A DNA stretch of 64,000 bases from Candidatus Aenigmatarchaeota archaeon. GTDB taxonomy: Archaea; Aenigmatarchaeota; Aenigmatarchaeia; CG10238-14; SpSt-28. Location: the NCBI GenBank assembly GCA_039000985.1, contig JAWBMD010000003.1, positions 5,979-69,978 on the forward strand, given 5' to 3'. Both the position numbers and the translations under genes were made by a program. Under the pieces are notes generated by a model, which saw only the letters and a program-made list of their open reading frames with translations, had not been told where the DNA came from and did not search any database. Below are positions 43,852-46,651 of this stretch, in pieces (position 1 is the stretch's first letter; each line of letters starts with the position of its first letter).

Positions 43852-43867
43852 CCTAGATTGAGAATTT
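43852..43867 (-). promoter_or_regulatory. 3' strand of the pre-16S processing stem (CCTAGATTGAGAATTT on the + strand)
   Basis: Perfect 16-nt complement of 46636..46651. The two segments bracket the 16S gene, as in archaeal pre-rRNA processing helices. Confidence 0.75.
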
Positions 43868-43893
43868 TATGGTGATCCAGCCGCACGTTCCCG

Positions 43894-43980
43894 TTGCCTG
43901 ATATGTGGAAATCTCGTTTCACCATAAATTCTTCATCGCTCAGAATCAACCCAAGCTTTCATTATTTTTTCCACATATCT
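43894..43980 (-). other. 87-nt insertion in the 5' strand of 16S helix 45 (putative intron)
   Basis: Splits CCGTA|CGGGAACGTGCGG. The ends form a 12-bp stem, GATATGTGGAAA/TTTCCACATATC. Confidence 0.65.
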
Positions 43981-44396
43981 TACGGCTACCTTGTGACGAC
44001 TTACCCCCCCTCGCAGAGGTTCTACTCGACTATTTCTTCAATAGCCTTGTAGAACCTCTACTCGGTTGGGTTGACGGGCAGTGTGAGCAAAGGACAGGGA
44101 CGTATTCAGCGAACGTTAGTGACGTCCGCTTACTAGGGATTCCAGCTTCACGAGGGCGAGTTACAACCCTCGATCTGAACTGAGCACGCTTTTTAGGGAT
44201 TTGCTCTCCCTTTCGGGTTCGCATCCCATTGTAGCGTGCATTGTGTCGCGCGTGTAGCCCAGCGCAATAGGGGCATACGGACTTCGACCAGCTAGAGAGC
44301 ATTTATTAAACTTTTCATGTCTTCAAAAATTTTATCAAAAGCTTGAAGTTCTTCGCGATTAAAACTATCTAATTTTCTCTTAGTTTCTATTAGTCC

Positions 44397-44726
44397 TCAA
44401 ACTTTAATCATTGGAAAATTGAATTTAATTTTGAATCCTTGAAAAGCCAATTTTTGAATTTGTTCTTTTATTTCTCTTTTTGAGAAGGAATTTATTTCTT
44501 TGCATTCTATCACTATGTTACTGTCAGGTAAGAAAAAGTCAACTATAAGATTTTCTTTGAGTGGAAAGTTAACATGGAACCCAATATTCTTCTCCGATAG
44601 CGCTTTCTCCAGTAATCTCTCTTGTGGTGCACGTCTCTTTTTGAGACTTTCTATAGCTCCTTTTCTTCTTGCTTTTTGTGCTGCATAACTTTTTCCATGT
44701 ACTTTAAACCATTCGATAGCTTCCAT
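44397..44726 (-). CDS. PD-(D/E)XK (Vsr/DUF559-like) nuclease encoded in the 16S intron; candidate homing endonuclease
   Basis: 109 aa. ERLLEKALSEKNIGFHVNFPLKENLIVDFFLPDSNIVIECKE gives D...ExK spacing as in DUF559/Vsr-fold nucleases. The TGA stop is followed by 34 more in-frame codons. Confidence 0.6.
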   Translation of the reverse strand: MEAIEWFKVHGKSYAAQKARRKGAIESLKKRRAPQERLLEKALSEKNIGFHVNFPLKENLIVDFFLPDSNIVIECKEINSFSKREIKEQIQKLAFQGFKIKFNFPMIKV

Positions 44727-44766
44727 CTGAGATTTCTAAATCTATTTATTACTTCAGATAAAATTA

Positions 44767-44949
44767 CTACCCGCATTCTACTCTGAATTTTATTAACCAA
44801 TTTTCTGCAGTTTTAAATTGCATTGTTTTTATTTTACCTAACTCGTACTTGTTGATATTTTTGGAAGGACTTCCTACGAATTTCTCAAACTCATTTTGTG
44901 ATAATCCTAATGCTAACCTTAATATCAATAGTTTTTGAGGGTTTAACAT
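44767..44949 (-). CDS. XRE-type helix-turn-helix protein encoded in the 16S intron
   Basis: 60 aa. LILRLALGLSQNEFEKFVGSPSKNINKYELGK fits the Cro/C1 HTH pattern. Lies upstream of the nuclease ORF on the rRNA sense strand. Confidence 0.55.
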   Translation of the reverse strand: MLNPQKLLILRLALGLSQNEFEKFVGSPSKNINKYELGKIKTMQFKTAENWLIKFRVECG

Positions 44950-45200
44950 TAGAATTTCTGGAGAAATCTCCGTAAAGTTTTTGTTTCTATCTTTACTTCT
45001 TTAAAGAGTTTTCTTATTTTATCCTCTGGAATTATAGTTTTTGGTATATATATTATACTGATGTACGACCATTTAAATCTTACTGACCAACTCTCTAGCT
45101 GTCTACCGTCGCCCACACCTTCCTCCCACTTATCGCGGGCAGTCTCCCATGAGTGCCTCCTTTCTTTCGAAAGGAGTAGCAACATGGGATGTGGGTCTCG

Positions 45201-45231
45201 CTTCAACCCTGACCAGAAATACTCTGGTCAA
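45201..45231 (-). other. About 31-nt hairpin insertion in the 16S 1100 region
   Basis: Splits the conserved AACGA|GCGAGACCC block. Forms TGACCAGA..TCTGGTCA. Confidence 0.45.
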
Positions 45232-45239
45232 GTTCGTTA

Positions 45240-45271
45240 GTCTCATCAAGCTATTTTTGCTCGATGATTTA
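45240..45271 (-). other. About 32-nt hairpin insertion in the 16S 1090 region
   Basis: Lies between GTCAAGTCGG and CTAACGA. Forms TCATCGAGC..GCTTGATGA. Confidence 0.45.
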
Positions 45272-45566
45272 ACCGACTTGACGGCACGCCTCACGGTACG
45301 AGCTGACGGTGGCCATGCACCACCGCTCGGCTTGTCTGGTAAGCCCTTCAGACTGACCATCATCCTGCCGTCTGCGCTGGTAAGATTTCCGGTGTCGAAT
45401 CCAATTGAACCGCACGACCCACCCCTTGTGTGTCCTCCCGCCAATTCCCTTAAGTTTCATCCTTTCGGACGTACTCCCCAGGCGGCCCACTTAACACCTT
45501 CGCTCCGGCACAGGGTACTCCCAAGGAGTACCCCACACCAAGTGGGCATCGTTTACGCCCAGGACT

Positions 45567-45646
45567 TTCCCGCGCAGATGGGGAGCAGTTCATTTCTCAA
45601 AGGATTAGATATTCTTCATATAATCAGAAGATACTCCCAACCACGC
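45567..45646 (-). other. 80-nt insertion in the 16S 785-805 region (putative intron)
   Basis: Splits GGATTAGATACCCCGGT|AGTCCTGGGCGTAAACGATG. Confidence 0.65.
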
Positions 45647-45727
45647 ACCGGGGTATCTAATCCCGATCGCTCCCCTGGGTTTCGTCCCTCACCGTCCGGA
45701 CTGTTCCAGGCAGCCGCCTTCGCCACT

Positions 45728-45924
45728 CACCCAACAGAGGTCGGCTTAAAAAAGACTGTTAGGAGTTTCTCTATAAAAAATAAAAACGTTGTTTTCTTTT
45801 TTCCAAGTAAATTATTTGGCAACTCCTCTAAAAATTGTATTTTTTTTATTGTTAGAATTTCAATAAGTCTTTTAGTCAAAGCTCGAAGCGACTATAATTA
45901 TTGACCGCCAACACTCTGCTGACT
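45728..45924 (-). other. About 197-nt AT-rich insertion in the 16S ~720 region (putative intron)
   Basis: Splits GGACCACCAGT|GGCGAAGGCGGCTGCC. The junction is ambiguous by 3 nt (ACT repeat). No intact ORF. Confidence 0.65.
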
Positions 45925-46477
45925 GGTGGTCCCCATAGGATTAACGGATTTAACCCCTACCCTATGGGTACCGCTGCCCTCTCCCAGCCGCTAGACTAGC
46001 AGTATCTCCCCCAAGCTCACCAGTTTACTGGTGAATTTCAAGGGAGACTTACTAGTCCGGCTACGAACGCTTTAGGCCCAATATTCGTGCTCACCACTTG
46101 GGGCGCGGGTCTTACCGTGGCAGCTGGCACCCGTCTTGCCCACCCCTTATTCGCCCAACCGTTAACATTGGGCAAAAGCTCCTTACCAAAAGGTAAGAAG
46201 CACTCCGGCTACCCTCATCGGGCGTTAACCCATTGTGAAGGTTTCGCGCCTGCTGCGCCCCGTAGGGCCTGGACTCATGTCTCAGAGTCCATCTGGGGGC
46301 TCCCACTTCCATGGCCCCTACCCGTTATAGCCTTGTGGAGCTATTACCTCCACAACAAGCTGATAGGGGATAGTCTCATCCTCGAGCGGCTTCGAACGCC
46401 CCTTTGATATGGAGACATTCCAGTACTCCATATCTATGGGGTATTAGCCCCAGTTTCCCGGGATTATCCCCTTCGAG

Positions 46478-46512
46478 CCAAAAGTGATAGAAATCACTTA
46501 TGGTCTCTCGAG
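46478..46512 (-). other. About 35-nt hairpin insertion near 16S position ~135 (mini-intron or expansion)
   Basis: Lies between duplicated TCGAG pentamers. Forms the hairpin ACCATAAGTGAT..ATCACTTTTGG. Confidence 0.45.
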
Positions 46513-46635
46513 GGTAGATTAACTACCCATTACGCAGCAGTACGCCGAGGGCTTGCCCCTCACGGCTTGCATGGCTTAGTCGTAGCCGGATAGCAGTGAG
46601 CTCTGGTGGGATCAACCAGCATCGAGAATGGCGGG

Positions 46636-46651
46636 AAATTCTCAATCTAGG
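46636..46651 (-). promoter_or_regulatory. 5' strand of the pre-16S processing stem (AAATTCTCAATCTAGG on the + strand)
   Basis: Perfect complement of 43852..43867. Confidence 0.75.

Follow-up and report, generated by a model that had tools for sequence, protein, structure and literature searches.

A 16S ribosomal RNA gene of an Aenigmarchaeota archaeon that is very probably interrupted by seven archaeal-type introns

A 64,000-nucleotide (nt) stretch of DNA from Candidatus Aenigmatarchaeota archaeon (contig JAWBMD010000003.1, positions 5,979 to 69,978; "the window" throughout) contains a 16S ribosomal RNA (rRNA) gene of almost twice the usual length, which is very probably the functional 16S gene of this Aenigmarchaeota (DPANN) archaeon, interrupted by seven introns of the archaeal, bulge-helix-bulge (BHB) type. 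The gene occupies 43871..46622 on the minus strand (2752 nt) and is the only 16S gene in the window. Its seven insertions measure, from 5' to 3', 33, 197, 80, 32, 32, 820 and 87 nt (1281 nt in sum), and the gene without them is 1471 nt long. The preliminary description of the locus, made from the letters alone, had arrived at a 2752-nt minus-strand gene with seven insertions summing to about 1.28 kb and about 1.47 kb of remaining 16S, all of which holds; its individual lengths of 87, 820, 32, 80 and 197 nt are exact, and those of 35 and 31 nt are corrected here to 33 and 32. The Rfam model SSU_rRNA_archaea (RF01959) scores 1020.6 bits against 43961..46622 of the minus strand, with its full length (positions 1-1478) included in the match. 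(This match ends 90 nt early because the insertion in helix 45 breaks the alignment, an instance of automated rRNA callers cutting the gene short; the 3' end, GGATCACC at 43871, and with it the length of 2752 nt, is accordingly set by reading the sequence.)

The insertions interrupt the conserved core of the molecule. Covariance-model alignments that jointly cover all model positions leave oversized unaligned blocks at the sites named in the preliminary description and nowhere else, and place all seven of them within the core (the 790 loop, the helix 34/35 region, helix 45 and others). None lies in an ordinary variable region, a placement that the preliminary description had named as one that would refute its reading; expansion segments would be expected in variable regions or at helix tips. 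The insertions are 30-44% G+C; the 16S exons are 55% and the window as a whole is ~25%. This seven-insertion gene, at 99.8-100% identity, is present in four independent assemblies. (One of the four copies is on an archaeal contig, L010, NCBI JBDRYJ010000146.1 of GCA_039803385.1, that is mis-binned in a metagenome-assembled genome (MAG) labelled "candidate division WOR-3 bacterium".)

The junctions were scanned for the BHB geometry known from tRNA introns: a central helix of 4 bp flanked by two bulges of 3 nt, one on each strand, each of them cut between its bases 2 and 3. (In the motifs given below the bulges are bracketed and a bar marks the cut; E. coli numbering is from alignment to E. coli rrsH.) A full BHB is found at I1, I2, I3, I4a, I4b and I5, with a 4-bp central helix and inner stems of 3-12 bp, and the predicted ligation products match the E. 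coli sequence and the archaeal consensus. The combination of a central helix pairing at 4/4 positions and an inner stem of at least 3 bp arises at a rate of 1.1e-3 for random position pairs in this gene, and six exact matches are far beyond chance. Folding of the junctions, which the preliminary description had proposed as a check, thus yields six canonical motifs and, at helix 45, a relaxed one.

All seven introns are on the minus strand. I1 (46504..46472) is a 33-nt hairpin mini-intron inserted after E. coli position 144, with BHB cct CGAG[AG|A]cca ... tgg CTCG[AA|G]ggg and a fold of z = -4.2. I2 (45922..45726; 197 nt long) follows position 722, with BHB CACC[AG|T]cagcagag ... ctctgttg GGTG[AG|T] and an 8-bp inner stem. 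I3 (45646..45567; 80 nt long) follows position 801, in the 790-loop region, with BHB ac CCCG[GT|G]cgtgg ... ctgcg CGGG[AA|A]gt. I4a (45268..45237) and I4b (45233..45202) are 32-nt hairpins after positions 1102 and 1105, with BHBs tc GGTT[AA|A]tcatcgagc ... gcttgatga GACT[AA|C]ga and TAAC[GA|A]cttgaccagag ... ttctggtcagg GTTG[AA|G], respectively. The stretch that they span folds with z = -6.5 and includes, between them, a micro-exon of 3 nt, CGA (45234..45236, minus strand); intron-less relatives read GGTTAACGAGCGAGA at this place. I5 (45102..44283; 820 nt long) follows position 1197, with BHB ga CGGT[AG|A]cagctagagagt ... gctctctagctg GTCG[AA|G]tc and a 12-bp inner stem. I6 (43980..43894; 87 nt long) follows position 1513, on the 5' strand of helix 45, with the relaxed BHB GCCG[TA|A]gatatgtggaaa ... 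tttccacatatc AGGC[AA|C]. Its 12-bp inner stem is in register and its site is 2 bp below the GGAA loop, much as the preliminary description had it (a 12-bp stem, just before the loop). The suspicion voiced there that this is not one of the Thermoproteales intron sites is borne out: position 1513 is far from all 13 catalogued loci (PMC4496867), and position 144 likewise.

A further BHB, in the stem from which pre-16S rRNA is processed, serves as an internal positive control. The 5' half of this stem (46636..46662, minus strand) reads aatt GATG[AA|A]cctagattgagaattt, with a predicted cut after 46653, and the 3' half (43841..43867, minus strand) reads aaattctcaatctagg CATC[AA|A]aatt, with a predicted cut before 43845; the motif is canonical, and the scanner returns it as a perfect BHB (h=4, H=4, h'=16, that is, a 16-bp inner stem).

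Two relatives of the gene share an unusual signature with it. The site of the "universal" 515 primer, at about 46113..46132 on the minus strand, reads GTGCCAGCTGCCACGGTAA, with C-to-T and G-to-A changes relative to the usual sequence. Among 185,579 species genomes a single one contains the altered 20-mer, GGTGCCAGCTGCCACGGTAA, and L003 is the only real metagenome contig that does; a second metagenome match, L004, was discarded as a chance match, there being no rRNA at that locus. The one genome is the MAG Candidatus Aenigmatarchaeota archaeon SKYB42 (L002), which is syntenic with the window, its flanking genes being 77-84% and its 16S exons 87-92% identical. In the SKYB42 gene I1, I3 and I6 are present, and I2, I4a, I4b and I5 are absent exactly at the predicted junctions (at the I5 site the uninterrupted junction matches at 28/28 bases). 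SKYB42 also has a 31-nt BHB mini-intron of its own directly after the helix-45 GGAA loop (L002 about 4095..4125; GGGA[AC|A]tagtgt...acacta TCCT[AA|G]); with introns on both sides, the GGAA loop there is therefore carried on a 7-nt exon, CGGGAAC. Contig L003 (95.6% identical to the window) carries I1 and I3; its I2 site is occupied by a 292-nt intron whose interior is unrelated to that of I2 and whose stem co-varies; I3 in SKYB42 and L003 is 76-88% identical. Another locus, L005 (91.7% identical to the window), carries I6.

Three more distant loci, L014, L016 and L026, together provide uninterrupted alleles for all seven sites. The 16S gene of L026, ~79% identical to that of the window, is without all seven introns; the I3 site is uninterrupted in L014 as well as L026, and I4a is also absent from both; and the uninterrupted helix 45 of L016 and L026 is identical to the predicted I6 product (24/24 and 28/28 bases, respectively). 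An intron encoding a LAGLIDADG protein near helix 45 in L016 was considered as an occupant of the I6 site and rejected: it actually lies near E. coli 1498-1500, the site of a group I intron of Nawrocki et al. (PMC6125680), and so is no evidence for I6. The LAGLIDADG intron close to helix 45 in L014 shares with I6 the ending GGCAA|CGGGAAC, and may or may not occupy the same site. Homologues of the gene's downstream neighbour were also followed: P0003 and P0005 have no adjoining 16S in their contigs, and P0001 has only the last 285 nt of one.

Where introns are shared, their stems co-vary. The central helix of I1 is CGAG/CTCG in the window and TGGG/CCCA in SKYB42, and its inner stem changes from cca/tgg to cta/tag. 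The inner stem of I2 is cagcagag/ctctgttg in the window and cagtaggagtt/aactcctactg in L003. In I3 of L003 a 4-nt deletion moves the partner strand and the 5-bp stem is kept. The G.A mismatch in the I6 central helix of the window is a G.U pair in SKYB42 (TGGC), which completes the full 4 bp there. At site 1197, where seven introns can be compared, 95.2% of cells are paired, and sliding the partner strand lowers this to 7-40%; each of the 6 inner-stem pairs shows changes on both sides, and 0/500 shuffles reach the observed score.

I5 contains the remains of a gene (44292..45047, minus strand) for a protein of ~255 residues with an XRE-type helix-turn-helix (HTH) and a putative PD-(D/E)XK-like nuclease domain. 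Three-frame translation locates its lesions: the start codon is now ATA instead of ATG, the frame shifts twice, and a tryptophan codon (TGG) has mutated to the stop TGA. Two open reading frames (ORFs) survive, of 60 residues for the HTH part (44767..44949, minus strand) and 109 for the nuclease core (44397..44726, minus strand). The 109-residue ORF finds itself as the sole match in a word-indexed protein search, and no match among PDB sequences with phmmer. Exhaustive HMMER searching retrieves 19 homologues of 165-273 (mostly 250-273) residues, OGI14830.1 and MBL7169466.1 among the intact ones, with nearly all the full-length ones matching the ORF over their own residues 102-220, and the repaired I5 translation aligns along the whole family with 46% identity. 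In the C-terminal domain Q143, D171 and Q204 are invariant, and E144 and E182-x-K184 are conserved in at least 90% of 16 sequences (P0008 numbering). The HTH domain is matched by Pfam HTH_3 (2.5e-5); the family profile run against PDB sequences matches HipB and HigA through the HTH domain alone, the nuclease domain finding no match there. Matches to Pfam DUF559 and to restriction-enzyme families are weak and below cut-offs, and one family member weakly matches a phage "homing endonuclease" family. A confident AlphaFold model (pLDDT 90) is obtained from the alignment, compared with an unusable 46 from the single 109-residue sequence. The best Foldseek matches of the model include Can2, Ecl18kI, BstEII, MUS81 and R.BspD6I, nucleases of the PD-(D/E)XK fold; these matches are marginal (E-values of 1e-3 or worse, TM-scores of at most 0.41).

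As to the genomic setting of the family, DNA was read at seven loci, which cover five of the 19 homologues, and at all of them (Micrarchaeota RBG_16_49_10 and Aenigmarchaeota ISS48 included) the homologue sits at 16S spliced position 1146, equivalent to E. coli 1197 and thus the site of I5, within a canonical BHB. This constancy of site makes it most likely that the family encodes a site-specific homing endonuclease; its predicted target in intron-less 16S rDNA is GGCGACGGTAG^GTCCGTATGCC. Pfam detects no LAGLIDADG domain in the I5 ORFs or in eight intact homologues; LAGLIDADG genes are present in other introns of the related loci. The published enzymes of archaeal rRNA introns are LAGLIDADG proteins (PMC4496867, PMC3943268), and the HTH plus PD-(D/E)XK-like proteins may constitute a new homing-endonuclease family, of a type unreported for archaeal introns.

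The following scheme would account for these features. The gene would be transcribed as one precursor, in which each intron folds with its flanking exon bases into a BHB; the tRNA-splicing endonuclease would cut in both 3-nt bulges, as at the BHB of the processing stem; and RtcB would join the exons to a normal 1471-nt 16S rRNA and circularise the introns. The introns themselves would be mobile, or once-mobile, DNA. The 820-nt intron may have entered site 1197 with its HTH plus PD-(D/E)XK-like homing-endonuclease gene, which has since decayed, and the 32-33-nt hairpin introns and the 197-nt intron may be minimal remnants that keep only what splicing needs. Signs of mobility are the absence of four introns from SKYB42, the different interior of I2 in L003 and, in I5, the decayed gene of the putative nuclease, whose homologues occupy this same rDNA site in all seven loci read.

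Several points weigh against this scheme. Cleavage, ligation and circularisation, and homing activity as well, are predicted from sequence. I4b has no outer helix; nor, in this genome, has I6, whose central helix consists of three pairs and a G.A mismatch. Before splicing, I4a and I4b have overlapping BHBs, and the 3-nt exon between the two introns would need holding in place through two ligations. EndA and RtcB are not found among 50 ORFs scanned in the window (most, not all, of the ORFs of at least 110 residues). Finally, the interiors of I3 and I6 are conserved beyond the needs of splicing, which probably signifies a further role and could in principle include retention in the rRNA. With regard to the machinery, introns are also found in tRNA genes of the window, including one at a non-canonical position with a canonical BHB; the host therefore depends on this splicing system, and these introns, together with the processing-stem BHB, lend indirect support to the predicted excision by EndA and ligation by RtcB. 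(A 129-nt tRNA gene at 5699..5827 on the plus strand, matched by Rfam and missed by ARAGORN, is apparently a tRNA-Lys(UUU) with two introns: 17 nt at a non-canonical position, 5730..5746, with a canonical BHB, and ~38 nt at the canonical 37/38. Adjacent tRNA genes at 30393..30492 and 30494..30594, also on the plus strand, each have a ~25-nt intron at the anticodon loop; the anticodons that ARAGORN assigns to them, Gln and Ser, look wrong, and the loops suggest CAT and TCT.)

That some or all of the insertions are expansion segments kept in mature 16S rRNA is decidedly unlikely: the sites are in the conserved core instead of the variable regions, six of them have BHBs in exact register, and close relatives are without four of the insertions and distant ones without all seven. 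I3 and I6 are the likeliest candidates for retention because their interiors are conserved (76-90% identical among relatives, as against 53-58% for I1 at the same divergence; between window and SKYB42 the values are 58% for I1, 81% for I3 and 76% for I6), and the relaxed BHB of I6 also speaks for it. However, the central helix of I6 is a full 4 bp in SKYB42, and a retained I3 or I6 would break the 790-loop helix or helix 45 (the latter 2 bp from its GGAA loop), both of which are sites at the subunit interface of the ribosome.

The conserved interiors have a common plan. I3 and I6, both predicted to be mostly unpaired inside, align with each other around TTGGG...TTCTGA-N-ATGAAGAAT. In I3 a K-loop-like motif, CTGA-TTAT-ATGAAGA (45613..45627, minus strand), is followed directly by a 12-nt spacer, ATATCTAATCCT (45612..45601, minus strand), and then by TTGA; the spacer is antisense to exon GGGATTAGATA over 11 bp. 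I6 has a box C/D-like core (43930..43963, minus strand) that comprises AATGAAAG, the 12-nt CTTGGGTTGATT and CTGA-GCG-ATGAAGA, in box C/D order: AAUGAAAG, 12-nt spacer, CUGA, GCG, AUGAAGA. The spacer CTTGGGTTGATT is complementary over 10 bp to exon GTCAACCCAA, where helix 44 starts. In each of the two introns the longest complement to the exons falls within the 12-nt spacer beside the D-type box. The pattern CTGA-N3-9-ATGAWGA occurs twice in the 64-kb window, in I3 and in I6, where 0.59 occurrences are expected by chance. Six sub-threshold Rfam matches are obtained with I6: five are to C/D-box families (SNORD69 at 23.4 bits, sR2 at 16.5, SNORD127 at 14.9 and sR5 at 13.9 are the four best, and sR17 is the weakest of all six) and the other is to the H/ACA family snR91.

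On this basis I3 and I6 might be paralogous mini-introns with a box C/D-like ribonucleoprotein core, acting in cis as guides or folding chaperones before splicing. This is speculative, and on balance doubtful. All the Rfam scores of I6 are below gathering thresholds, and I3 has no meaningful match to the C/D families of Rfam. As judged by reading the sequence, the terminal C/D pair is poorly formed and is not adjacent to the stem; one of the spacers has a length of 7 nt; and the exon complementarity is not significant (p ~0.10 and ~0.17 in whole-intron shuffles). A strict regular-expression search of the window returns no canonical box C/D sRNAs, and fibrillarin, Nop5 and L7Ae are not found among the 50 ORFs scanned. 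On the guide reading, the fifth-base rule would point to U788 for I3 (target in the 790 loop) and A1408 for I6 (start of helix 44, decoding centre). The conserved cores of I3 and I6 suggest that certain rRNA introns have acquired a function. Locus L026, at about 1723..1820 on its minus strand, has at another site, near spliced position 1310, an insertion of ~95 nt that contains CTGA-GCTTTCAAAGCT-ATGACGA and AATGAGGA; its CUGA...AUGACGA motif resembles the K-loop-like one shared by I3 and I6, a hint that the family may be wider.

Returning to the seven-intron reading, a variant of it in which the BHBs are cut and the pieces left unligated, yielding a fragmented 16S rRNA, is highly improbable. 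The cleavage signals are present, ligation is a prediction, and fragmented rRNAs occur elsewhere in biology. But the 3-nt exon CGA of the window and the 7-nt GGAA-loop exon of SKYB42 would then be lost, though both are universally conserved, and in archaea cutting at BHBs is coupled with joining by RtcB, in tRNA introns as well as in rRNA introns and pre-rRNA (PMC4496867).

A decaying pseudogene or an assembly chimera, with another 16S copy in use, has minimal probability. It could appeal to the decay of the I5 homing-endonuclease gene and to a view that takes in 64 kb of the genome; against that, the same structure recurs in four independent assemblies and is partly common to relatives, the exons are better conserved than the flanking protein genes in the comparison with SKYB42 (87-92% and 77-84%), changes in the exons are offset by compensating ones within rRNA helices, the BHB of the processing stem is intact and synteny is conserved. 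Artefact and pseudogene were rejected on the agreement of the assemblies, the conserved exons and the intact processing BHB. There is scarcely any likelihood that the larger insertions, I5 and I2, are self-splicing group I or group II introns, in spite of the occurrence of group I introns in DPANN rRNA genes, sometimes beside BHB introns and including the SSU/1498 site in Micrarchaeota (PMC6125680), for both have canonical BHBs (inner stems of 12 and 8 bp), I5 is almost wholly occupied by its decayed ORF, and an Rfam scan of the whole window finds no group I or group II family at the gathering score.

The gene departs from convention in other respects. Its end (43865..43878, minus strand) is GGATCACC-ATAAAA, without the CCUCC of the anti-Shine-Dalgarno sequence. 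This absence is common to SKYB42 (GGATCACTACAAAA) and L005; L014, L016 and L020, which are other DPANN, retain GGATCACCTCCT, and the anti-Shine-Dalgarno tail seems to have been lost in the window's clade. Six introns break conserved stretches to which primers and probes are directed, and together with the altered 515 region and the altered tail they mean that amplicon surveys would miss the lineage. The rRNA genes are unlinked, since the 5S gene (52220..52338, minus strand) stands by itself at a distance of ~5.6 kb from the 16S gene and the window contains no 23S gene. Elsewhere on the minus strand are a gene for an SMC ATPase (39761..42772) whose N-terminal ATPase domain contains an intein (residues 45-219; Pfam Intein_splicing at 3e-24), as also in L005; RNA polymerase subunit B encoded as two ORFs (59..3329; Rpb2 domains 1-3 at 1839..3329 and domains 4-7 at 59..1870); and an ORF of 1195 residues (47248..50835) that adjoins the gene for ribosomal protein L11 and has no Pfam match.

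The introns are of a known kind, archaeal BHB rRNA introns; the notable features are new sites (helix 45 among them), the 3-nt exon, the decayed member of a probable new homing-endonuclease family and the conserved, possibly functional cores of two introns. Full-text literature searches return no description of 16S introns in Aenigmarchaeota, and Sakai et al. 2022 (PMC8784108) list 16S insertions for Crenarchaeota, Aigarchaeota and Micrarchaeota only. BHB rRNA introns thus prove abundant, with mapped junctions, in a DPANN phylum not named in the literature searched. The added sites include both sides of the helix-45 GGAA loop (I6 in the window, the 31-nt intron in SKYB42), and the 3-nt exon, with the 7-nt exon of SKYB42, makes a demanding test of the limits of the archaeal endonuclease and ligase. 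The preliminary description had called this many insertions in one gene unusual. This is true by comparison with published crenarchaeal cases, and not by comparison with public DPANN genomes, where genes with 8-9 insertions are found; for Caldiarchaeum, published surveys give two introns per 16S gene. Aenigmarchaeota ISS48 (L020; GCA_016783305.1, 1958..7118) has a 16S gene of ~5.2 kb with about nine insertions, four of them with ORFs (three LAGLIDADG, one HTH-nuclease), and so exceeds the window's gene in interruptions; in L023 a partial 16S gene holds at least eight insertions, and four large ones are present in each of L016 and L019. Some of the insertions in these four loci may be group I introns. 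In intron count the window's gene is not extreme among public DPANN genomes.

The closest published counterparts are the 16S BHB introns of Thermoproteales, Desulfurococcales and Aigarchaeota (Jay & Inskeep 2015, PMC4496867), for which 13 loci in Crenarchaeota and Aigarchaeota are catalogued. These too have a BHB core at each junction, lie in conserved regions and are lower in G+C than the host gene; they too comprise endonuclease-encoding introns, remnants and hairpins of <50 nt, some in closely spaced pairs, and site 722 is common to both sets. Sites 801, 1102, 1105 and 1197 lie 2-12 nt from loci 803, 1093 and 1205, an offset that may be either real or one of numbering. On the other hand, the host here is a low-G+C DPANN archaeon and not a thermophilic crenarchaeote, the exon between paired introns is 3 nt instead of 7-8 nt, and the intron-borne gene is not LAGLIDADG. 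Micrarchaeota ARMAN-2 and ARM-1 (PMC8784108) share with the present case a DPANN host and a 16S insertion that encodes a "hypothetical protein" with no recognisable LAGLIDADG; theirs is a single 522-bp insertion at E. coli 1093, with splicing left undecided in that work, whereas here there are seven with mapped BHBs. The rRNA insertions of bacteria of the Candidate Phyla Radiation (PMC11270868) are comparable in that they are numerous, occur in ultrasmall episymbionts, sometimes encode homing endonucleases and are missed by "universal" primers; their bacterial hosts, however, have no archaeal splicing endonuclease, and the insertions are not BHB introns. Archaeal group I introns (Nawrocki et al. 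2018, PMC6125680) occupy rRNA genes of the same DPANN phyla and co-occur with BHB introns, but the elements described here are of the BHB type, and the window contains no group I core.

For the I5 family, the nearest parallels are I-Ssp6803I and I-Bth0305I (among the PD-(D/E)xK and EDxHD enzymes; Stoddard 2014, PMC3943268), which are likewise intron-borne and combine, as is predicted for the family, a restriction-enzyme-like core with a DNA-binding module. Those enzymes reside in bacterial or phage group I introns, whereas the I5 family, whose nuclease activity is predicted and which has no significant sequence similarity to them, resides in archaeal BHB introns and has an XRE-type HTH. For I3 and I6, the relevant comparison is with the box C/D guide RNA that lies within the pre-tRNA-Trp intron of Euryarchaeota (d'Orval 2001 and Singh 2004, summarised in PMC7994747). 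In both cases a BHB intron holds in its interior boxes of C/D type (C/D-like in I3 and I6) and stretches antisense to the RNA that hosts it. In I3 and I6, unlike the tRNA-Trp intron, only the internal D'/C'-like pair is well formed, the terminal one being poor, one of the spacers measures 7 nt and not 12, the Rfam matches are sub-threshold, and the host is an rRNA rather than a tRNA. If the guide reading were true, I3 and I6 would be the rRNA counterpart of the tRNA-Trp intron guide.

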